Source of the DNA: a virus
Direction: 5' to 3' (one strand)
Virus record (IMG/VR): IMGVR_UViG_3300026488_000026
Location: 1-64,000 of that record
DNA: 64,000 bases
The notes beneath the pieces were generated by a model. The model had not been told where the DNA came from and did not search any database. It saw nothing but the letters and a program-made list of their open reading frames with translations. The position numbers and the translations under genes are program-made. Of this stretch, positions 17,928-49,413 are shown in pieces. Position 1 is the first letter of the stretch. Each line of letters begins with the position of its first letter.

Positions 17928-19283
17928 CTAAACTTTTAAATCAGGATCGCCTCCTAAAGGGTCTGTACTTCCTACACTACTTGGTTTATTATTTTGGCTT
18001 TCAGAATTATCAGTATTATTTTCTGAATTATTTTTACTCATAGCAACTAAATCTTGGAAGAATTGAGCTTCGCTACCTGTTAAGAAAGCAGGGACAATAT
18101 TTTTATCTGCACCATCAAAATCCATTTCTGGTAAATCAACTAAATTTCTTGCTTCATTTAATGTGGCAAGTCCTGTTGCAAACAATGTTCTCGCACTATC
18201 AGCTTTTACATCAAGAGCCGTATCAAGTTCTGTAATTCTTCCAAAATCAAATTCAAAATGATACTTACCATAACCAAATTGTTTTCCTAAAAACAAATTA
18301 ATTTGGTCTTGTATTCTATATAAATAAGGTCTTACAGCGGTATTAAATACAACTTTCATTAATTCTTGTGGTTTTCCAGCACTACTTGACTCACCTCCTA
18401 AAACAAGTGCATTTAATTTAAAAACTCTTAAAACTCTTTTTTCACTTATATTTATACTATCTAAAAGCATTGCATCTTTAGGGCTTGCTTGAACTGTCTT
18501 ATAATCCATTTTGGCTGGTAAAACAGCTATACCTCTTCTTTCACTACCACCTTTTCCATATAAAGCATTAAATTGTTCTCTTAATTCTTCTATTTGTTGA
18601 GGAGTTAGAGCGTATTCTGCTTTTAAAATACCAGCTAAAATTACACTTCCTTCATAAAATTCTTTTAAACTTTCAATGGCATCTTTTTCTAATGTTAAAG
18701 TATCAAGTAAAGGGGCTACACTTGGTAGCCCATAATAAGCATTATTTAAAGTTGGATTTACAATCCAAATAAGTTCATTTTCTTTATAAGCAATTTTATC
18801 ATTATAAATATAACCTTTAATAAATTTAGTCGCATCGGGCACTACTTTAACATTGTGAGGTTGAGTTAAAAACCAAGTTTCATAACTTCCTTTTACATTT
18901 TCAAAAGTTAAAGGAGCTACACCAGAGAGTAATAAACCTTGAATTGCAAGTTCAATTATTGTCCCCCAAGACCAAAACGGATTTGGTCTGTATTCCCATT
19001 CTCTTAATTTTTTGTCCTTAACAGGTAGTTTTTTACCAGATTTATCTAACTGATATAATCTTGGGACGGCTTGTCCTCCAGCTTTTGCTATATAATCAAC
19101 AGCACTAAAAACAAGCTCACTTGTATGAAAAGAATTTTCCATAGCACTTGTAGCTAAAATACCATTTCCATCTTTATAATCTTCAAAAATTTTTTTATTT
19201 GCTTTTGTAGCTTTGGTATTCATATATATTAATGTTTCTTTTTTTGTCTGAGGTTGTTTTTTAAAAAGATCAAAAAAACCCAT
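17928..19283 (-). CDS. portal protein (HK97 family)
   Basis: 'RPNPF', 'YYGLPSV', 'TLNEARNLVDLP' motifs; between terminase and protease. Confidence 0.92.
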   Translation of the reverse strand: MGFFDLFKKQPQTKKETLIYMNTKATKANKKIFEDYKDGNGILATSAMENSFHTSELVFSAVDYIAKAGGQAVPRLYQLDKSGKKLPVKDKKLREWEYRPNPFWSWGTIIELAIQGLLLSGVAPLTFENVKGSYETWFLTQPHNVKVVPDATKFIKGYIYNDKIAYKENELIWIVNPTLNNAYYGLPSVAPLLDTLTLEKDAIESLKEFYEGSVILAGILKAEYALTPQQIEELREQFNALYGKGGSERRGIAVLPAKMDYKTVQASPKDAMLLDSINISEKRVLRVFKLNALVLGGESSSAGKPQELMKVVFNTAVRPYLYRIQDQINLFLGKQFGYGKYHFEFDFGRITELDTALDVKADSARTLFATGLATLNEARNLVDLPEMDFDGADKNIVPAFLTGSEAQFFQDLVAMSKNNSENNTDNSESQNNKPSSVGSTDPLGGDPDLKV

Positions 19284-19315: not shown

Positions 19316-19323
19316 TATATCAG
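19316..19323 (-). promoter_or_regulatory. late promoter box CTGATATA
   Basis: 33 nt upstream of portal ATG. Confidence 0.75.
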
Positions 19324-19337
19324 TTTTAATAAAAACA

Positions 19338-19495
19338 TAAAAAATAAAGGAGAGAAAAATGAAACCTAATTTTAAGGGGAGGACATTCAATTGAGCTTTA
19401 TTTAAAAATAAAGCTCAATTGAACACCCACATCAGGTGTTCTAAATTTAACACCCACTTCAGGTGTTATAAATTGAACACCCACATCAGGTGTTC
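19338..19495 (-). ncRNA. candidate late small RNA: three 27-nt hairpin repeats, an 18-bp hairpin and an anti-RBS tail
   Basis: Orphan late promoter at 19502-19509; hairpins with compensatory closing pair; 19338-19364 complementary to RBS/ATG regions of replication-arm genes. Confidence 0.55.
19421..19495. repeat. three tandem 27-bp palindromic units
   Basis: Units start at 19421, 19448 and 19475: (G/T)AACACC-CAC(A/T)TCA-GGTGTT(C/A). Confidence 0.95.
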
Positions 19496-19501
19496 TACTA
19501 T

Positions 19502-19509
19502 TATATCGG
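19502..19509 (-). promoter_or_regulatory. orphan late promoter box CCGATATA
   Basis: No ORF follows; 7 nt upstream of the hairpin array. Confidence 0.7.
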
Positions 19510-29722: not shown

Positions 29723-31285
29723 TTAATTAATTTGATATCCCCAAAGTTCATCTTTAAAAACATTACCTTTTCCATCGGTCCAATAAACAACAAAACTTGA
29801 ATTATCGTTTTCTTTTATCCCACCTAAAACAAAAGCTGGTTTATCTAATGTTTCTAATAATTTAACAGCATTAGTATCGTTTGCTACAAAATTAATAAAT
29901 AGCATATTTCTTCTTGTATCATTGCTATTTCCATCATTATTAATTAATTTTAGCCCATTAGGTAAATTATAAAATTTAAGGCTATCTTCTTTACAATCAA
30001 TTTCTATTCTTGTTGCATTGTCTATGTTTGTATATTTAGAACTTGTAGCCCTAATATGTAGATGTTTTTTATTATCTGAATCATTAAACCAATCAATTCT
30101 GGCTTGTGCTGGATAAGCACTGCCTAAACCAAAATTATAACCTACCCAGCTACCAGAGCTTGTTGTATTCTTGTAAGCTTGGTATGTTCCTTTATCTCCA
30201 GCTACAATATCATAAGCATTAATATTTGAACTTGTAACATCAACTGCTAAACCTAATGTTCCCGTAGTCCAATTATATTTTAAACTTTTTCCTAAAGTTG
30301 AACTTGCGTTGTAATTATCATTTTGACTTACAACAACATCATAATTTACATAATCATTAGTTTTAACAACTAACGCTTTCCATTCATTTGAATTACCTTT
30401 CCTTCTAACAATAATTTCTTCAGCTAAATTATCATAAATTAATTGTCCTCCTTTTGGGTATTCATTAATATCATTTTTCCAATCTTCTATTCTTTGATGA
30501 ACAACATCTTGAGAGTTTGATGGTAAATAAATCCAACCATCATTCCAAAAAACAAAACCTGAATATTTAATTTCTTTATTTGCTACTAATGAAGTTTTAC
30601 CTTTAAACCAACCAAAATGCCCAGCTGAGTTATAAATAACAAGATTTTTATTTTTAAAATCAATCCAATAATATCCATCTTCTGGCGTTCCTTGTCCTGT
30701 TGGCGGGTAGCCTGTAACATAATTAATACGATTTTCAATAGAACGATTAAAATCCCAACCAAAATCCCCACGAGCTTTTATAGCATTATTACGACCACAA
30801 TATAAATTATAATCTTTTGTATCTCCATAAATAGGAATACCAGCTCCTATAACGCCATATTGATTAACAGCAAATTGAACTTGTGATGTATAAGCTTGTA
30901 TAACTTTTTCGCTATGTGTAAAAATTCTTAAAGGCGTAACATTTTTACTATCAACAGTTGTATCAATATTTAATGCTGAGTTTGTTCCTTGTGGGTTGTG
31001 TTGTAAATATGGACTTGTTATTGCTTTATCTCCATCAGTTTTATATAAAAATTTATTTTTTTCTCCTTCAATTGTAGTTCCATATTTTATTTTTAAAAGT
31101 TGTCCGTTTGAAATTGCGTCATTAACTGTAACTCCAACAACTTCATTTGGATCAACTACTAAAACATAATGTTCAAATACATCAGAACTAATAGCAACTT
31201 TTAAAATATCTCCTCTTTTAAATTTATCAAGTTTTGAAAATTTAGTATCTACTATTGCTATTTCTGTATGAGTTGGGATTGCCAT
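29723..31285 (-). CDS. putative tail fibre/receptor-binding protein
   Basis: 520 aa, beta-rich (N/S/T/G/Y), first gene of late arm, next to LamG and DUF4376-like genes. Confidence 0.55.
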   Translation of the reverse strand: MAIPTHTEIAIVDTKFSKLDKFKRGDILKVAISSDVFEHYVLVVDPNEVVGVTVNDAISNGQLLKIKYGTTIEGEKNKFLYKTDGDKAITSPYLQHNPQGTNSALNIDTTVDSKNVTPLRIFTHSEKVIQAYTSQVQFAVNQYGVIGAGIPIYGDTKDYNLYCGRNNAIKARGDFGWDFNRSIENRINYVTGYPPTGQGTPEDGYYWIDFKNKNLVIYNSAGHFGWFKGKTSLVANKEIKYSGFVFWNDGWIYLPSNSQDVVHQRIEDWKNDINEYPKGGQLIYDNLAEEIIVRRKGNSNEWKALVVKTNDYVNYDVVVSQNDNYNASSTLGKSLKYNWTTGTLGLAVDVTSSNINAYDIVAGDKGTYQAYKNTTSSGSWVGYNFGLGSAYPAQARIDWFNDSDNKKHLHIRATSSKYTNIDNATRIEIDCKEDSLKFYNLPNGLKLINNDGNSNDTRRNMLFINFVANDTNAVKLLETLDKPAFVLGGIKENDNSSFVVYWTDGKGNVFKDELWGYQIN

Positions 31286-31632: not shown

Positions 31633-33492
31633 ATGAATAGATTGATTGAAATTATCGAAAAAGAAAAAAAAGAAAGAAGAAAAATTAAAAAAATTTTGAT
31701 AAAAAGAAAAGATAAAAAAGTAGCAATTAAACCAAATTCATTTGATAAATTTGGTCAATTGCTTAAAAATTATACAATAATTTTATACCAAATGTCAAGA
31801 GTTTTATCAAATTTTTCTAATAAAAATAAAGCAATTTTGAATAATTTGTTATTTTTATTAGAAAAATTTGATAATTCATCAAGTTTTTATAGAAACTACA
31901 AATATTTTATAATGGGAATTATAGAAGGACAAATAAATCCTCAAGTTGTCGCTCAAAATTTTACTCAATTTTATATTACTCTTACTTCTACGCATTTTGA
32001 AACTAAAGGTTTAAGTTTTGTTGCAAATCCTTATCAAGCTACTCAACAAGATAAAGCAAGACCTAATTTAAGACATGGTAAGTTTGGTTATATAAGAAAA
32101 TATGGATACGAACAAAATTTAGGTTTGGTATTTGATGACGAAAGTTATGATGTTGTTGAATATTTTAAAATGATAACAAACGATAAATGTGCTTTTTATA
32201 CGCCAAATAATAAATATTCTAAAAATTCATTAAGATTTGATATTGATGATAAAACTTTGAATATGAATGAAATGGAAATTTTAATTAGAACTACAATGAA
32301 TAAATTGAATATAAATGGTGAAGTTGAAATTATCGAAACAACAAAAGGTTGGCAATTTGCAATTTATGTGCCATTGTTTTTTATTAAAACTTTTTATGAT
32401 AAAAGCGATTATGTTGTAGAACAAATTTTTATTAGTGATAGAAAAACAACGAAAGCATTTGATGCCTATCAAAAGTTTAATAGAAAGTTTATTAAAGTTT
32501 TAGAAAATTTAGCTAAAGAGCTTTTTAATGTTAAATTAGAAGTTGATAAATTTGCTTTAGAACAAGAAAAAGTTAGAATATGGCGAAATGCAAAAGCTCA
32601 TAATCATTGTTATTTTTCTGTTATTGATAATGAAAAAACAACAATTTTAGAAATGATTGATTTACCTGAAGAAGATGAAAAAGAAAATTTTATAAATTAT
32701 TTTGAAACTAAAAAAGCAAATGAAATTGAATTACGAAATAAAATGCCAAATGTTTATAAATTTTTTAAAAAATATAATTTTTCAATGCCTAAAATAAATT
32801 GCTCTTTAATCGGTAAAATGAGTGAAAATACCGAAAGTTTTTATTTAACAAAAGCAATCGTTCATAAATTTGTAATTGATTATAATCATTTAGAAAATTT
32901 TGATATTTTGTTGGCTGAATTAAGCGAGGCAATTGAGCTTGATTTTAGAAATATTTATCAAGAGGAAAAATCAATTGAAAATATAAATATTGTAATTGAT
33001 TATTATTTAGAAAATTTCGATATTTATCTAACCGCCCAAAAAACGGCAAGAAGTCGCATGTTTGCTAAAAGTTTAAAAGCTTTTGAAAATATAAGAAAAA
33101 ATAGAAATAATTTAGGCGAAATAAAGCAAAAAATTGAAAAAAATAAAAATGAACTTGAAAAAATTAAAAATAATGATGAAAATAAATTGTCAGTTAGAAA
33201 AATGGCTAAAGAATTAGAAAAAATTGCTTTTGAATTGCCTAAATCTACGCTATATGATTATATTAGAAAAGGGAATGTTGATATTTTAATTGAAATGATT
33301 GAAATGTTATATGAATATGTTATAATTTTAATGAATGGTAATGAAAAAGAGCAACAAAAAGCAATTCAATTGTTTGAAATAATCGAACAATTAAAAGGTG
33401 CTGTTAGATATGTTGTAACTATGATGAAATTTGGTTTGGTTAGAAATGAAAAATTGCGAAAGTTTTTTTATGTAGAAAAACGAAAGGAATGA
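31633..33492 (+). CDS. putative Rep protein: AEP/primase-like domain plus C-terminal HTH
   Basis: 'YTPN..LRFDIDD' and 'ETTKGWQF' motifs; HTH 'LSVRKMAKEL..LPKSTLYDYI'. Confidence 0.55.
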   Translation: MNRLIEIIEKEKKERRKIKKILIKRKDKKVAIKPNSFDKFGQLLKNYTIILYQMSRVLSNFSNKNKAILNNLLFLLEKFDNSSSFYRNYKYFIMGIIEGQINPQVVAQNFTQFYITLTSTHFETKGLSFVANPYQATQQDKARPNLRHGKFGYIRKYGYEQNLGLVFDDESYDVVEYFKMITNDKCAFYTPNNKYSKNSLRFDIDDKTLNMNEMEILIRTTMNKLNINGEVEIIETTKGWQFAIYVPLFFIKTFYDKSDYVVEQIFISDRKTTKAFDAYQKFNRKFIKVLENLAKELFNVKLEVDKFALEQEKVRIWRNAKAHNHCYFSVIDNEKTTILEMIDLPEEDEKENFINYFETKKANEIELRNKMPNVYKFFKKYNFSMPKINCSLIGKMSENTESFYLTKAIVHKFVIDYNHLENFDILLAELSEAIELDFRNIYQEEKSIENINIVIDYYLENFDIYLTAQKTARSRMFAKSLKAFENIRKNRNNLGEIKQKIEKNKNELEKIKNNDENKLSVRKMAKELEKIAFELPKSTLYDYIRKGNVDILIEMIEMLYEYVIILMNGNEKEQQKAIQLFEIIEQLKGAVRYVVTMMKFGLVRNEKLRKFFYVEKRKE

Positions 33493-37711: not shown

Positions 37712-38013
37712 GAATTTTTCTCCTTTTATTGATAATTTCAAGTTTGTTTGGCTATGATTTGTTGTGTTTAGTAGGTAAGAACGGCGATAAATGGTTGGAA
37801 GTTGAAAAACAATTAAGTTTGCATTGTGATAGCGAAAAATTAAAAATAAATGCGGTTAGATTTAGGCAAATTAGCGATTTGTTTGTTTATGAAATGCCAA
37901 ATAAAGCGGTGTTGTTTTGCGAGAAAGATTGGGTGTGGAGCTTTAGAAAGCTGATTATAATCGGCAAAGAAAATTTTAAAAGCGGTGATTGCAAAAGTTT
38001 TTATAAAAAATAA
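37708..38013 (+). CDS. putative exported protein
   Basis: Signal-peptide-like MRIFLLLLIISSLFG. Confidence 0.55.
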   Translation: MRIFLLLLIISSLFGYDLLCLVGKNGDKWLEVEKQLSLHCDSEKLKINAVRFRQISDLFVYEMPNKAVLFCEKDWVWSFRKLIIIGKENFKSGDCKSFYKK

Positions 38014-38476
38014 AGTTTGTAAAGGTTTTGGTAGAGGATTTGCTGTGGTTTTGGCGTGGATTTGTTAGTTATATGCCAAGCTATTTGTGAGTAATTGGTA
38101 GGTAAAAGAAAGTCCGCGGATTTTTTAGCGTTTTGCACTCAAATAACCTCCCCCGTTTAATTCACAAGCCACATGTGAATATCTGCTTTTAGTGTCAAAC
38201 GCTTTTTGTTTACTTAACATAATGCATATTCTCAGGACATTTTAAAGCTAAAAAGTGTGAATAACTCAACGAATGGCAATTCAATTTTAAGTGAATGTTA
38301 AGGATTTTTTATAAAATAGTAAAATTATAGTGTCTGACACTATAAAAAATTTTTAACATAAGGTAGTTTATAGAATAAGCATCGGTCGGCGTGGTTGCGG
38401 TCCTTTGCGGTCCTCTTTTATCGCCCTACAAGGAAAGGTCAAAAAATGCCGCGTTTTGTGGGTCACATTGTAGATT

Positions 38477-38825
38477 AAAATTTTTTCTTTTAAATCTAAA
38501 ACAAATTAACTAAAATTTTTTCTTTTAAATCTAAAACAAATTAACTAAAATTTTTCTTTTAAATCTAAAGCAAATTAACTAAAAATTACCTTGCAAAATT
38601 AAAATTTTTTCTTTTAAATCTAAAACAAATTAACTAATAAACTAAAAACAAACAAATTAATAAACAAATTAATTAACTAACAAACTACCTTGCAAGATTA
38701 AAATTTTTTCTTTTAAATCTAAAACAAATTAATAAACAAATTAATTAACTAACAAACTACTTTGCAAGATTAAAAAATTTTCTTTTAAAATTAAAAGCTA
38801 ACAAACTAAAACTATCTTGCAATTT
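38477..38825. repeat. AT-rich tandem/mosaic repeat array (about six copies of a ~35-bp unit)
   Basis: Unit AAAATTTTTTCTTTTAAATCTAAAACAAATTAACT, later copies interleaved with ACTA(C/T)(C/T)TTGCAA blocks. Confidence 0.9.
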
Positions 38826-38864
38826 TTTAAATTATCAAAAGTCTTTGACACTTTTTATTAAAAT

Positions 38865-38897
38865 AACGCCAAGGGGACTAATTTTCCCTTTGGCGTT
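38865..38897 (-). terminator. hairpin terminator of the early cluster
   Basis: AACGCCAAGGGG...CCCTTTGGCGTT, 12-bp stem with one non-canonical pair. Confidence 0.7.
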
Positions 38898-39220
38898 TGA
38901 AAATCTTATTCCATAGTTTTTCTTCTGTCTTAACCACTTCTATATTTCCTGCTTTTATTTCTTGCTCTATTGCTTGTTTGTTTCCATCTTTGAAAAAGCA
39001 AAAATCTTCCAAAAAAAATTTTTAAATATTTTGAAGTTGTAACCGAAAAATTATAAGCATTTTTCAAGAGATAGATTTTTCTTTCTTTTATAATTACTCC
39101 GTCTTTTTCTTTTTTAATATATGTTTTTCCTGCAATAAGAGTATTATAACTTTGAAAAATAACTCCTGATTCATTTCCTATTAAAAACTGATTTTTTTGT
39201 ATTTGTTTTACTTTTAGCAT
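38878..39220 (-). CDS. early hypothetical protein, apparently frameshifted at a T8 tract (reads 38930..39220 as given)
   Basis: 'FQSYNTLIA..SVTTSKY' motif; removing one T at 39011-39018 gives ..FLEDFC..AIEQEIKAGNI.. ending at 38878. Confidence 0.55.
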
Positions 39221-39233
39221 TGTGTGTCTCCTT

Positions 39234-39650
39234 TTAGTTTACTCTATAAATATAATAAGTTTTACCATTTATAGTAATTTCTCTTTCGTCTCCATCATAA
39301 CTCGCAATTACACTTCCTGCACCATCATATTTTAATACATCTTCAACCCAAGCATCAACATCCACATAATATCGCAAATTTTCTGGTATATCTGATTCAT
39401 AGCATTCTTCATAAATAGTATATAATTCATTTTTTGCATACTCTTCTACATCATCATAATCATTAAAAACTAAAAATTCACAGCATCCACAATCTACAAA
39501 TAAATAGTTGTTCTCTTTTCTGAATTCACAATCTTTCAAATCTTTTGGAAGCACTTGAAGTGCTTCCGCCAAAATTTTCAAATCATACTTATCTTGAATA
39601 TTAAAATATTCTAACACTTCTTTAAAAGTTAATTCATTATCATATAACAT
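39234..39650 (-). CDS. acidic early hypothetical protein (ArdA-like C-terminus)
   Basis: 'IPENLRYYVDVDAW..D..DG.G..ASYDG.E' motif, highly acidic; AAGGAGG RBS. Confidence 0.55.
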   Translation of the reverse strand: MLYDNELTFKEVLEYFNIQDKYDLKILAEALQVLPKDLKDCEFRKENNYLFVDCGCCEFLVFNDYDDVEEYAKNELYTIYEECYESDIPENLRYYVDVDAWVEDVLKYDGAGSVIASYDGDEREITINGKTYYIYRVN

Positions 39651-39662
39651 TTTACACCTCCT

Positions 39663-40568
39663 TTAATTTTCTAAATCTTCAATTATATAATCTAAAAAAG
39701 TATCTTCATCAAAATCTAATAAAATTTCGATAAAATCATTAAGTTTATCATAATCTACTATTAAATGATAAATAAATTCGTCTTTCGCCCATTCATATAA
39801 ATTTTTAAATAATTCTTTTTTGTTTTGTTTTTTATTGCAATCTTCACAATCTTTATAATAATTTTCATAAATTTCAATTAATTCTTCTTTTTTAATTTTT
39901 TTAAGAAGTTTATCAATTAATTCATCTTCGCTATAATCAATTAAACTTGAAATAATCCAACTTAAAGTTTTATAATCTAAATTATTATAATATTTAACAT
40001 CTTTTAAATACTCTTTTATGTCATCTACTAATACATAATAATTTGTGCCATCATGATGCCTGATTATCACTTCAATTTTTTTGTATTTTTTGCAATCAAA
40101 AACTTCCACTTCAATATCACCATCCGTTGCTTTATTTAGGAAATTTTCAAAAGTGCCTATATATTGTATTTCATAATCAAAATTGCCTCGCCATGTCCCT
40201 ACGCTTTCATCTACCAACCATAGGTTGCCATTATCAATTTTTTCATTTAATTCATCTATAAAAAATTTCCAATCTTCTCTCGTCAAATCTCCTGCTTTTC
40301 TCCAATCCCAATATTCATAATCTTCTATAATTTCATTTTTTTGTTTTTTTAAATTTTTTATTTCTTCTTTAAAATCTTTTATTGTTCTTTTAATTTTATT
40401 ATATGTTACACTTCCTGTTATAACATCTTTTAACATCTCTTCATTTTCTTTTATTTCATATTCAAGTGCTTCAATTCTTTCATTAAGTTCTTGCTCAACC
40501 AAATATTTAGCATTTTCTTCTACTACTATATCCCAATTAAATTCCATTATTTTTCTACATTCTTTCAT
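39663..40568 (-). CDS. acidic early hypothetical protein
   Basis: 'GTWRG...HHDGTNYY' motif; AAGGAGG RBS; consensus promoter upstream. Confidence 0.7.
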   Translation of the reverse strand: MKECRKIMEFNWDIVVEENAKYLVEQELNERIEALEYEIKENEEMLKDVITGSVTYNKIKRTIKDFKEEIKNLKKQKNEIIEDYEYWDWRKAGDLTREDWKFFIDELNEKIDNGNLWLVDESVGTWRGNFDYEIQYIGTFENFLNKATDGDIEVEVFDCKKYKKIEVIIRHHDGTNYYVLVDDIKEYLKDVKYYNNLDYKTLSWIISSLIDYSEDELIDKLLKKIKKEELIEIYENYYKDCEDCNKKQNKKELFKNLYEWAKDEFIYHLIVDYDKLNDFIEILLDFDEDTFLDYIIEDLEN

Positions 40569-40597
40569 TTGTGCCTCCTTTTATTTTTGTTAATGAC

Positions 40598-40626
40598 ATT
40601 ATAAAAAATTTTTTATAAAATGTCAA
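40598..40626 (-). promoter_or_regulatory. sigma70-type promoter with palindromic spacer
   Basis: TTGACA-N17-TATAAT overlapping TTATAAAAAATTTTTTATAA. Confidence 0.88.
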
Positions 40627-40816
40627 GAATTTTTTATAAAAAATATAAAAAATTTTTTATATTTTTATTTTTGTATATACATTAATATATAAGAAAAATT
40701 TTTCCGCTCTTTCATTTTTTAGTTTTTTATTTATAAAAAATAAATGCCAAACACCAAATTTTTCATTCGTTTTACTTTATAAAAAATTTGAAAATTTTTC
40801 AAAATTTTTGTATATT

Positions 40817-40900
40817 TTACTATTACCGCTTTTTTAATAAATTTTGAAAATTTAATTTTATTACTATTACCGATTTTTTAGTAGATTTTAAAAGTTTTAA
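40817..40900. repeat. two imperfect 44-bp direct repeats
   Basis: TTACTATTACCG(C/A)TTTTTTA at 40817 and 40861. Confidence 0.75.
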
Positions 40901-40995
40901 ATAGGAGGCACAAAAGGCAAAAAGCTCGAAATTTCGGAGGCACAAATGAAATGCTATAAATAAGGAGACACAATTTCTTTTTTGGCTTTTTGCCT
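40900..40995 (-). ncRNA. candidate anti-RBS small RNA
   Basis: Orphan promoter at 41001-41030; 14-bp inverted repeat 40912-40925/40985-40998; three segments complementary to RBS regions at 40563-40579 and 39223-39233. Confidence 0.6.
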
Positions 40996-41000
40996 TTTAA

Positions 41001-41030
41001 ATTATAAAAAATTTTATAATTACTTGTCAA
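41001..41030 (-). promoter_or_regulatory. orphan sigma70-type promoter
   Basis: TTGACA-N18-TATAAT; no ORF for 430 nt downstream. Confidence 0.8.
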
Positions 41031-41067
41031 GAATTTTTACAAAAATGTAAAAAATTTTTATAAAAAA

Positions 41068-41365
41068 CTACTTTTTTGATAGTTTTTCTTTTTTCTTATT
41101 AAAATGTTCTACAATATGACCCATTCTACGCTTAATTAAAACACTTACAATTGCTCCTAATGTTCCGCCTAATACAAATAATAAAATAATCTTTTTTAAT
41201 TATCCCATTGCTAATACCTAATCCTATGCTTGTAATCCAAAGTATTTGAATTATAAAAGCAAACACCCCTGTTTTAAAAATTGATTTTTCAACTACAACA
41301 TACACACTATATGTTCTCATAATTTGAAATAAAAAATTAAAAAAGAAAACTAAAAAAGCCGTCAT
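41068..41365 (-). CDS. small membrane protein, apparently frameshifted near 41180 (reads 41132..41365 as given)
   Basis: An alternate frame supplies a last TM helix FVLGGTLGAIVSVLI ending at TAG 41068. Confidence 0.5.
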
Positions 41366-42714
41366 TTTTCCGCCTTTGTAATTATAAGTTCTTCTAAATA
41401 ATCAGCCTTATCTTTATCAACTCTAAACTCTTTAAATCTTGGAAAATCCATAACTAATTGTTTTTTGCCGTTTGAATTTGTTATATAATACAAATCCGTA
41501 TAATAAATTTCTACAAGTTTGCCTATCAATTTATCTCCATTAAGCTCTCTAATTTTATCAGTTAAACCACTTCCCACTTTTATTTTAAATTTTCCATCTT
41601 CAGTTTGACAAATAAATCCGCCTATTTTACCTTCATATTTCCCTTCACCTTCAAACCAATCTATAATCCTTAAAGTGCAACTTTCAAGTCCTTTATACTT
41701 AATCCATTTTTTACTTCTTTTTTTCTCATAAATTCCATTCAAATCTTTAAGCATAATTCCTTCGCCTCCTTTATTTTTAACTTTTTCAAATAAACTTTTA
41801 ACTTGCTCAAAATTATCACAAACGAATTGGTCTATTAATTTGATGCTTAAATTTTCAACCCCCCTTAAATTTTGACCCCCCTTATTTTCAAAATCTAAAC
41901 CTCCCAATATTTTTAAAAGTCTAACCCGCCTATCTTTTAAAGTCGGACAATAAAATTCAAGATTATTCCACTCTCTAATTGTAAGATAATCAAAACAATG
42001 AAAATTAAGTTCTTGTTTTTCTTTTTCAGTTGCGGTTTCTTTTATAACTTTAGTTACAAGTCCTGATGTTTCTTGTCTTGTTTTTGCAAGTAATTCGCCA
42101 TCATAATAACCATCTGGTTTGTTTTTTAGTTCTTTAAAAATATATGGTAAATTTAAAACACTACCATTGTATGTAATAGCATTTATTTCATCTTTATTTT
42201 TGTAAATAAGACATCTAACGCCATCTAATTTTTCTTCTACTGCAATTGGAAATTTAATTTCATTAATATCAATTTTATTAATGTCATATGCTTTCATAAT
42301 AGTTGTATCTGGTATAAACTCATAACCAAGTGCCTCATTTATTAACTTAACTTTAACTCCAAGTTTTAATTTTTTAGTTAAAATGTCTTGATAATATTTT
42401 CCTTCAATTCCACACTTTGATAAAAATGAAATTACCTTTTGTTCGGCTTCATTACTTCTTGCTTTAAGATTTACAAGATAATCAACAAGTTCTAAAAATT
42501 TATTAGGAGGTATAAGAAAACCACCATATTTAAATTGAATTTCTGGTAGTTTTCTAATATGCGTATTTAAAAAAGGATTGATTAGAGTCTTTAATAAATC
42601 AAGAAAATAAGGAACATCTTTATATTCTTGAATTATTTTTATTTTTTCTTTTTTAGAGTTTGTTAGCATCAATTTATCAAAACCTGAAACCCATTTAAAA
42701 TTATCTTTTTTCAT
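41362..42714 (-). CDS. lig: ATP-dependent DNA ligase
   Basis: Motif I 'EEKLDGVR', 'YDGEL', 'FD', 'EGIMLK', 'WIKYK', OB-fold 'VGSG', 'FPRF..FRVDK'. Confidence 0.96.
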   Translation of the reverse strand: MKKDNFKWVSGFDKLMLTNSKKEKIKIIQEYKDVPYFLDLLKTLINPFLNTHIRKLPEIQFKYGGFLIPPNKFLELVDYLVNLKARSNEAEQKVISFLSKCGIEGKYYQDILTKKLKLGVKVKLINEALGYEFIPDTTIMKAYDINKIDINEIKFPIAVEEKLDGVRCLIYKNKDEINAITYNGSVLNLPYIFKELKNKPDGYYDGELLAKTRQETSGLVTKVIKETATEKEKQELNFHCFDYLTIREWNNLEFYCPTLKDRRVRLLKILGGLDFENKGGQNLRGVENLSIKLIDQFVCDNFEQVKSLFEKVKNKGGEGIMLKDLNGIYEKKRSKKWIKYKGLESCTLRIIDWFEGEGKYEGKIGGFICQTEDGKFKIKVGSGLTDKIRELNGDKLIGKLVEIYYTDLYYITNSNGKKQLVMDFPRFKEFRVDKDKADYLEELIITKAEK

Positions 42715-44451: not shown

Positions 44452-44700
44452 TTATTCTCCTTCTGTTGTTGATACTAAAGGTTTAACTTTATTTATTATA
44501 ATCCACCAAAATTTTTTCCATAAAGGTAATTTAATGATATACCAATTTTTGTCATCCATTGAATACTCTCTAATTCTATTTTTATTTGTAGTCCATTGAA
44601 CTCCCATTAATTTAAAAATAATAGGTTTTGTTTTACCTCTTGGGTTTCTAAAAGCATAACCTTTTTCTAAAAGGTATTTTTGTGCTTTTCTTATTGTCAT
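44452..44700 (-). CDS. hypothetical basic protein
   Basis: Promoter-RBS cassette upstream. Confidence 0.65.
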   Translation of the reverse strand: MTIRKAQKYLLEKGYAFRNPRGKTKPIIFKLMGVQWTTNKNRIREYSMDDKNWYIIKLPLWKKFWWIIINKVKPLVSTTEGE

Positions 44701-44731
44701 TTTTCTCTCCTTTATTTTTTATTGCGTAAAA

Positions 44732-44760
44732 ATTATAAAAAATTTTTTATAAAAAGTCAA
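44732..44760 (-). promoter_or_regulatory. sigma70-type promoter with palindromic spacer
   Basis: TTGACT-N17-TATAAT over TTATAAAAAATTTTTTATAA. Confidence 0.85.
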
Positions 44761-49086: not shown

Positions 49087-49354
49087 TTTTCTCTCCTTTA
49101 TTTTTTAATATATTAAAGGCTATCATAAACGCTTTTTTAAAAGCGTTATCATCTATGTTTAAGAAAAACTTTTCATCTACCATAAAACTATCTTTTCCGT
49201 TATTATAAACAACTTCTAATTGTCCATCACTACTCTTTAACCATTCTTTAAAAGCGTCCCAAAATAGAACGCCTGAAATAGCGTCAAGTGCTGTTTCTTT
49301 ATCATATGCTTTTTCTATTACAAAAACCTTTTTATTTTTCCGTTTATTTTTCAT
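49076..49354 (-). CDS. hypothetical protein
   Basis: Promoter-RBS cassette upstream. Confidence 0.65.
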   Translation of the reverse strand: MKNKRKNKKVFVIEKAYDKETALDAISGVLFWDAFKEWLKSSDGQLEVVYNNGKDSFMVDEKFFLNIDDNAFKKAFMIAFNILKNKGEKNEK

Positions 49355-49384
49355 TTTTCTCTCCTTTATTTTTATTGCATTAAA

Positions 49385-49413
49385 ATTATAAAAAATTTTT
49401 TATAGTTTGTCAA
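49385..49413 (-). promoter_or_regulatory. sigma70-type promoter with palindromic spacer
   Basis: TTGACA-N17-TATAAT over TATAAAAAATTTTTTATA. Confidence 0.88.

Follow-up and report, generated by a model that had tools for sequence, protein, structure and literature searches.

A geneless promoter and a candidate anti-ribosome-site leader RNA upstream of a three-gene operon in an uncultured phage

Here we describe a short module in the IMG/VR virus record IMGVR_UViG_3300026488_000026, located at positions 40903-40998 of the stretch of DNA that was analysed (the first 64 kb of the record, hereafter the window). The module directly follows a perfect sigma70-type promoter that has no gene behind it, and it carries three segments, here called boxes, that are complementary to ribosome-binding sites (RBSs) of the adjacent minus-strand operon, which comprises three genes starting at 40568, 39650 and 39220. 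We propose that it represents an anti-RBS leader RNA, and assign a probability of roughly 0.55 to such an RNA-level anti-RBS function. The record spans 78,936 bp, has direct terminal repeats and a G+C content of 25%, and belongs to an uncultured phage; the sequencing run containing it is a hydrothermal-vent metagenome. The module resides in a 560-bp non-coding interval with a DNA ligase gene on its upstream side and the operon downstream, and the analysis below relies on comparison of this record (G000) with its two relatives, G001 and G002.

The complementarity involves all three boxes. Box 2 matches the gene-1 site at 16 of 16 positions; on the plus strand it reads GGAGGCACAAATGAAA, and its complement spans the Shine-Dalgarno (SD) sequence, the spacer, the AUG and the next codon of that gene. 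Box 1 matches the SD and spacer of gene 3 at 11 of 11 positions, and box 3 matches the gene-1 site at 12 of 12 positions, being in addition able to pair with the site of the gene starting at 39650 through 13 contiguous pairs, three of which are G.U. These three anti-RBS segments, as well as the perfect 14-bp inverted repeat that encloses two of them, had been proposed in an earlier reading of the same DNA from the letters alone (the original prediction), and all of them were recovered at the same coordinates (Table 1), with the arms of the repeat separated by 59 nucleotides (nt) where approximately 60 had been estimated. Boxes 1 and 2 reside inside the loop that this stem would close, and box 3 directly past the stem.

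We assessed whether matches of this kind can be expected by chance. The sequence GGAGGCACAA with at most one mismatch is found 10 times in the window against 1.3 expected, and its exact copies are located in the gene-1 RBS, in two of the boxes, and once within a gene. When the module was resampled 5000 times with a first-order Markov model, no resample reached a perfect 16-nt complement of the three sites, and 12 reached at least 11 nt. Among all 97-nt windows of the genome, a 16-nt complement occurs only in those overlapping the module, the antisense of the sites themselves set aside. The complementarity between boxes and sites is not chance. Nor is it generic anti-SD sequence, as the original prediction had maintained: beyond the SD, the matches include spacer and start-codon bases.

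The promoter preceding the module, P-distal, displays the minus-strand TTGACA-N18-TATAAT arrangement that had been claimed for it, at 41030..41001, and agrees with the consensus at all 12 positions. Within 38000-42000 there are two such 12/12 sites, P-distal and P-proximal, the latter being placed shortly before gene 1, while promoter-like sites overall are not enriched in the region (29 against 26.9 in shuffles). A genome-wide scan assigns both to a near-identical promoter family with upstream and spacer sequence in common, with members at 40626, 41030, 44760, 49413, 60205, 67001 and 72266. The other family members are followed by an SD and ATG within approximately 70 nt, as is any other perfect-consensus promoter that precedes a gene. 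This includes 67001, outside the window, which was considered as a second orphan promoter and rejected, as it has a 70-nt leader followed by a real gene. For P-distal, the nearest SD-bearing start codon is located approximately 430 nt downstream, and among the minus-strand open reading frames (ORFs) in 40580-40995 none has an SD or is conserved in G001. Thus, P-distal is a genuine promoter of the phage family and is genuinely geneless, and its earlier designation as an orphan is borne out by the vacant interval behind it.

Folding of the module alone yields a stem-closed structure of -18 to -22 kcal/mol, with the closing stem present in the minimum free energy (MFE) as well as the centroid structure of both G000 and G001. 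For the boxes, the prediction is of a largely unpaired state, with mean probabilities of being unpaired of 0.56-0.96 at 37 and 60 °C (0.73 for box 1 and 0.93-0.96 for box 3), which answers favorably the earlier suggestion that loop accessibility be checked by folding. The stem was judged from single-sequence folds, since RNAalifold on a two-sequence MAFFT alignment misplaced the stem arms, owing to a paired indel, and gave no useful consensus. In the long leader of approximately 446 nt, from the predicted transcription start to gene 1, box 2 pairs with the SD and AUG of the first gene in the MFE and centroid folds of G000 as well as G001. This leader fold has z scores of -4.5 and -4.8 in the two genomes, and 0 of 100 shuffles fold as well. 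Furthermore, we ranked possible targets according to how much energy is gained when the module is co-folded with the -30..+21 region of each gene. The six called operon genes of G001 take ranks 1-6 of 95 and those of G000 ranks 1, 6 and 7 of 88 (rank 7 being gene 2), although the ranks are not independent, considering the crude gene calls and the signature common to the sites. The co-folds employ box 3 for all three targets.

Relatives were sought by DNA, protein and pattern in phage records, IMG/VR, JGI metagenomes, GTDB genomes and a collection of 5.8 billion proteins, and two were recovered in total: G001 (83.9 kb, ligase 87% identical) and G002 (80.6 kb, ligase 78% identical). A blastn search of 39200-41400 against 50,697 phage records gave 0 matches, and a search for related loci with the 301-aa protein of gene 1 likewise gave none. 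Ligase queries, as a single sequence or as an alignment, led to G001 and G002 only in IMG/VR, and to nothing in JGI metagenomes or GTDB genomes. Patterns of the boxes in IMG/VR DNA, a loose one with three boxes and one with two, mostly retrieved coding repeats of unrelated viruses, with G001 as the sole true match, and a metagenome search with the GGTAATAG-repeat pattern had G001 and G002 as its only true matches.

Conservation in related phages had been named as a check, and G001 indeed keeps the promoter, the stem and all three boxes. Its layout is that of G000: distal promoter, stem, boxes, GGTAATAGTA repeats and proximal promoter. Both hexamers of P-distal are intact there, with a spacer of 17 nt and an identity of 27/30, and P-proximal is kept in G001 and G002. 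All three G001 boxes read TTGTGCCTCC, and the first-gene site reads GGAGGTACAAATGAAA, that first gene being a different one from the first gene of G000. Between G000 and G001 the module is identical at 80 of 94 positions (85%) and the boxes at 39 of 41, box 2 at 16 of 16, compared with 49% at four-fold degenerate sites and 61-73% at third codon positions of the four flanking genes; all these identities are to be read with the high chance identity of AT-rich DNA in mind. On this sequence comparison, the module is conserved well above neutral expectation in G001. The spacers of the orthologous target sites are less well kept than the boxes (CACAAATG against TACAAAAATG, TGTAAAATG against TACAAAATG, and GGAGACACACAATG against GGAGGTACATAATG). 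Moreover, among the G001 operon sites read, none equals the exact complement of the G001 boxes, and hence the boxes were not copied from those sites in the recent past. The original prediction had pointed to intact genes, inverted and lying behind each RBS, as what homologous genomes might instead reveal; G001 is equally ORF-less here, and an inverted gene is likewise lacking at the corresponding place in G002.

Several of the differences between the two genomes are matched. The stem arms share a one-base deletion in G001, from A5/U5 to A4/U4 (A4 and T4 in the DNA). Box 1 holds GUCUCC where the gene-3 SD is GGAGA in G000, and GCCUCC where the orthologous SD is GGAGG in G001. The remaining differences between target sites and boxes all consist of transitions that face a G or U in the box motif UGUG, so that G.U pairs stay. 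Across the orthologous sites there are 6 transitions and 0 transversions against a transition background of 53-65%, a weak deviation (p approximately 0.04-0.08). The ribosome sites of the operon have a signature, GGAGG-YRYA, common to G000 and G001. In G002, from which the small ORF, P-distal and the module are missing and where the repeats and P-proximal are kept, the homologous operon sites read GGAGCGAAA, GGAGGAATA and GGAGAAAAA, and complements of its own GGAGCGAAAA sites are found nowhere in that genome. Hence, module and signature occur together in two genomes and are both missing in the third.

From these features, their conservation and co-occurrence, and the predicted folds we infer how the system may operate, including firing of the promoter, pairing of boxes with sites, a block of translation and its timing. 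Positions 40903-40998 would form the 5' part of an RNA from P-distal, and would also be contained in any read-through transcript from the ligase operon. Such an RNA would begin with the stem closing the 59-nt loop, leaving the three CCUCC boxes largely unpaired. The partner of box 2 would then be gene 1 and that of box 1 gene 3, with either gene 1 or gene 2 as the partner of box 3, and pairing at the SD, spacer and AUG regions would keep 30S subunits off. Long transcripts would accordingly bear their own masks and be translationally silent, with transcripts from P-proximal being translated. The same RNA, whole or processed, might also silence P-proximal transcripts in trans. As no terminator is predicted between the module and P-proximal, masking in cis represents the simplest form. 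On the other hand, read-through masking has no need of a perfect promoter right before the masks, which suggests that the RNA is also produced as an end in itself and could act in trans. The RNA-level anti-RBS role put forward in the original prediction fits the sequence comparisons and predicted folds, but its discrete RNA of approximately 100 nt finds no support in the terminator prediction. Masking by a long leader is to us the most economical reading.

A number of observations weigh against an anti-RBS leader RNA. The module alone folds only marginally better than shuffled sequences (z approximately -1.8), and in cis box 2 lies approximately 370 nt from the first-gene site. No intrinsic terminator was predicted between the module and P-proximal by a scan that skips loops above 8 nt and that misses the likely terminator of the operon, and a 3' end of the small RNA (sRNA) type was not found after the module. 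Only two genomes carry the module, each covariation thereby being a single event and none decisive alone, and G002 does without it. The whole 470-nt intergenic region is approximately as conserved as the module, so that the constraint is not specific to the boxes. Finally, the phage lineage copies long promoter-leader-RBS cassettes in both orientations, and inverted RBS copies can hence arise without regulatory purpose. The last point leads to an account in which the boxes are relics without function, left by inverted duplications of shuffled cassettes and kept by conserved surroundings or recent exchange. Long identical RBS cassettes do recur in both orientations in these genomes, and the G001 mini-ORF behind the second inverted copy opens with the first 18 bases of another gene, a typical recombination scar; the conservation of the non-coding flanks and the lack of the module in G002 are congruent with this account as well. 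Nevertheless, we find it unlikely, as synonymous sites are near saturation, yet the boxes are almost fully retained, even better than the spacers from which they presumably would stem, and no G001 operon site read equals them. In addition, an ORF behind the copies is found in no relative, and the three copies are placed right behind an otherwise purposeless perfect promoter, in or next to a maintained stem.

Alternatively, boxes and inverted repeat may operate as DNA, binding a phage or host protein, for example as an operator or a roadblock downstream of both promoters, with a fourth site overlapping the gene-1 RBS. The fourfold occurrence of a single 10-mer in 450 bp, in each case 20-90 bp past a promoter, could be viewed in this way, the inverted repeat is equally valid as DNA, and the region contains other conserved repeats resembling protein sites (GGTAATAGTA). 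However, the boxes lack palindromic symmetry and include the SD consensus, and the matches run into the start and next codon, as expected of RNA pairing rather than of an operator. The spacing of the boxes also shifts from 32/28 to 30/28 bp between the genomes, with loss of helical phasing, and the variants seen in the targets are precisely the ones that G.U pairing in the sense RNA accommodates, which together render a DNA-level element distinctly unlikely. We deem least probable of all that the functional RNA is instead the plus-strand one from 40825-41000, which holds three strong SDs and a 5-codon mini-ORF (MKCYK in G000, MKFYK in G001), and which might, as a decoy, draw off ribosomes or an SD-binding repressor, or else serve as antisense to the distal-promoter transcript. 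G001 retains the frame and stop of the mini-ORF, in which one change is synonymous and one non-synonymous, a plus-strand promoter-like site (10/12) is present at 40788-40816, and the plus-strand fold of G000 is as good as that of the minus strand (z -2.3). Such promoter-like sites occur, however, at the frequency of shuffles, as given above, the -35 hexamer is degraded in G001, and the G001 plus-strand fold is no better than shuffles (z -0.6). A start codon follows only one of the three SDs, and downstream on this strand there is only antisense of the ligase operon.

The case for an anti-RBS leader RNA at 41 kb is complemented by a second element at 19.3 kb, which was found by a systematic search for complements of ribosome sites. 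Here the plus strand at 19341-19364 is identical to the leader and RBS AAAATAAAGGAGAGAAAAATGAAA, and the minus-strand RNA consequently comprises a 24-nt complement. The core, AAGGAGAGAAAAATG, is common to five other minus-strand genes, three of them directly behind family promoters. No real ORF is present behind 19341-19364, where G000 has a mini-ORF of 11 codons and G001 an unrelated one of 7. The element is located in the late region, where an orphan site of late type (Table 1) precedes three 27-nt hairpin repeats, a long perfect hairpin, the anti-RBS, CTGATATA and a 451-aa gene. A strong fold (z -6.7) is predicted for its minus-strand RNA, the anti-RBS being left unpaired at the 3' tail, and the arms of the long hairpin differ from those of G001 by paired changes that keep the stem. 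G001 keeps the element, with C in place of the T of G000, as likewise seen in several G001 targets, while G002 has neither the AAGGAGAGAAAAATG signature nor the inverted copy. The YYGATATA motif is enriched (26 against 11.6 expected) and is located 28-45 nt before many starts of the late region (3147-31324, minus strand), and is by this placement likely a late promoter element.

The loci at 19.3 and 41 kb share a layout of orphan promoter, structured anti-RBS RNA, proximal promoter and gene, and this likeness raises the odds that both elements are functional. It is conceivable, if rather doubtful, that the timing of gene classes is set at the level of translation. Each class would bear a private signature, GGAGG-YRYA in one case and AAGGAGAGAAAAATG of five operon-leading genes in the other, with one ORF-less inverted copy each behind an orphan promoter, whose RNA would shut off the whole class in trans, as a cascade of barcodes. 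Were this correct, it would constitute an RNA-only shut-off cascade, with copies behind the sigma70-type promoter at 41030 and the late-type site at 19502.

Table 1. Coordinates of the features in and around the module, of the target operon and of the second element (positions of the window)
Feature	Position	Strand	Details
P-distal	41030-41025 and 41006-41001	minus	TTGACA, 18 nt, TATAAT; no ORF behind
Predicted transcription start	40993..40995	minus	inferred, 6-8 nt past the -10 hexamer, at the foot of the closing stem; same geometry in G001
Closing stem, 5' arm	40985..40998	minus	AAAAGGCAAAAAGC in the RNA; inverted repeat with 40912-40925
Box 1	40962..40972	minus	UGUGUCUCCUU; complement of 39223-39233, gene starting 39220
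Box 2	40936..40951	minus	UUUCAUUUGUGCCUCC; complement of 40563-40578, gene 39663..40568
Box 3	40903..40914	minus	UUUGUGCCUCCU; complement of 40568-40579; single-stranded tail just 3' of the stem
Two 37-nt direct repeats	40817..40897		repeat family D2; each with GGTAATAGTA after an A-run; between module and P-proximal
P-proximal	40598..40626	minus	TTGACA, 17 nt, TATAAT; 12/12; about 22 nt before the gene-1 SD
ATP-dependent DNA ligase	41362..42714		followed by a 77-aa ORF, the upstream neighbour of the interval
Gene 1 ribosome site	40563..40579	minus	AGGAGGCACAAAUGAAA; target of boxes 2 and 3
Gene 1	39663..40568	minus	301 aa; no known family
Gene 2 ribosome site	39650..39662	minus	AGGAGGUGUAAAA; pairs with box 3 via three G.U
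Gene 2	39234..39650	minus	138 aa; conserved Cys residues
Gene 3 SD and spacer	39223..39233	minus	AAGGAGACACA; target of box 1
Gene 3	38878..39220	minus	open frame stops at 38930 (96 aa); rest to 38878 in another frame
Likely intrinsic terminator of the operon	38866..38896	minus	G+C-rich stem, 9-nt loop, U-rich tail; read from the sequence
Orphan late-type YYGATATA site	19502-19509	minus	CCGATATA
Site before the 451-aa gene	19316-19323	minus	CTGATATA; gene starts at 19283

The genes of the target operon offer little guidance as to its role. The gene 1 protein has no Pfam or PHROG match, and a single homologue among 5.8 billion proteins, in G001. Gene 2 gives a Pfam match to ArdA under the curated cut-off (E 3e-4). 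Its structural model is confident (predicted local distance difference test, pLDDT, 87) and has no clear relative in the PDB, and ArdA was not supported by PDB sequence search or by Foldseek and VIA-align on this model; with the match unconfirmed, we refrain from calling the operon anti-restriction. The frame break in gene 3 follows a run of T8, compared to T7 in G001, where the orthologue has 112 aa. An assignment of the operon genes to an early class would follow solely from the sigma70-type promoter.

Both genes flanking the region, 41085-41365 and 38878-39220, are frameshifted relative to their G001 orthologues, the 77-aa ORF at the former position corresponding to an ORF of 100 aa, which reflects either real decay or homopolymer errors of the assembly. 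Considering these neighbours, the assembly may contain such errors, and the matched indel of the stem arms is also situated in homopolymer runs. The 37-nt repeats may represent a protein-binding site; they are kept in all three genomes, including the module-less G002, and a similar copy is located at genome position 77479. No Rfam family matched at gathering score over the window.

Other promoter arrangements were observed along the genome. A perfect minus-strand TTGACA-N18-TATAAT is situated at 31769-31798, inside the 5' part of the plus-strand gene 31633..33492, and points to a gene starting at 31285, approximately 480 nt off. G001 shares this promoter and the sequence that follows, and the G002 counterpart is a perfect N18 promoter with different downstream sequence; it may be another promoter with a long leader. 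Furthermore, a promoter-leader-RBS cassette of approximately 70 nt is found near-identical before unrelated genes at 44700-44760, 49354-49413 and genome positions 72205-72266, consisting of TTGAC(A/T), a common spacer, TATAAT and then ...aataaaaataaaggagagaaaaATG. A version of the cassette particular to G002 occurs on both strands of that genome, where genes of opposite orientation bear ribosome sites identical over 22 nt.

Nearly all genes are on the minus strand, except for those of a block at 31.6-38.0 kb, which is on the plus strand. A non-coding stretch of approximately 900 bp (38013-38930) separates the convergent gene blocks and contains tandem repeats of approximately 45-60 nt at 38480-38830. 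The segment at 38013-38480 is richer in G+C and conserved in G001, where the tandem repeats differ. The stretch could be a replication origin, a partition site or a non-coding RNA, and Rfam gave a match at chance level only (E 0.66) over it. An origin at 41 kb was considered and rejected, as the cumulative GC skew merely tracks gene orientation and gives no signal there, and the tandem-repeat region at 38.5-38.8 kb is the better candidate.

The proposed leader RNA can be compared with several established systems. The transposase mRNA of IS10 is subject to fold-back inhibition. In phage T4, the ribosome sites of genes e, soc, 49 and I-TevI are masked in a promoter-dependent manner (review PMC3014915). 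As in masking of the T4 gene e type and in IS10, the SD/AUG complement is located upstream of the proximal promoter (boxes at 40903-40972, promoter at 40626..40598), so that only the longer transcripts carry the mask, an arrangement that is the same in G001, and the predicted fold of the long transcript places the SD and AUG of the first gene in a helix. In T4, however, the mask is a local hairpin beside the site, whereas here it is far removed, in a separate stem-closed module with three boxes matched to three cistrons. Moreover, the module is directly preceded by a perfect promoter of its own, for which masking by read-through has no use.

The c4 RNA is cut from an operon transcript and pairs, through segments that are exposed, with the ribosome site of the first gene downstream. 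In phages P1 and P7 it is known as an antisense RNA (Citron and Schuster 1990, as relayed in PMC8201110). Like c4, the module is encoded upstream of its target operon on the same (minus) strand, with predicted unpaired segments complementary to the RBS of the first gene. It differs in having no sequence or structure match to the Rfam C4 family (the covariance model gave no match at E up to 10 over 40550-41100), and in exhibiting three boxes aimed at several cistrons rather than two loop segments. In contrast to P1 and P7, the phage shows no sign of temperate life, and its target genes do not form an antirepressor operon.

Trans-acting sRNAs represent another relevant comparison. RNAIII and RsaE/RoxS of S. 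aureus employ C/U-rich seeds that bind SD regions. LhrC of Listeria is a trans-acting sRNA with three redundant CU-rich sites (PMC4132741). The module likewise combines several CU-rich sites, predicted to be unpaired in a loop and a single-stranded segment of one short RNA, opposite AG-rich ribosome sites. The seeds of these sRNAs are generic and of 4-9 nt, whereas the matches of the boxes extend over 11-16 nt and take in bases of spacer and start codon that are specific to one operon; also in contrast to them, the module has no predicted terminator hairpin, is phage-encoded and adjoins its targets.

Shut-off of phage gene classes is usually attributed to transcription factors, nucleases and translational repressor proteins. 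If the module operates as we propose, it would be a purely RNA-based device, in which a geneless promoter yields an RNA with three boxes tailored to the ribosome sites of one operon. This would explain the common and otherwise puzzling ribosome-site signature within that operon, provide a compact and portable part for synthetic gene control, and, together with the 19.3-kb element, point to a still undescribed class of phage translational regulators. In that case the module would extend the known mechanisms of anti-RBS RNAs, namely T4 gene e masking, P1 c4 and LhrC, and would carry the principles of the former two over to several cistrons, each gene having a matched box.

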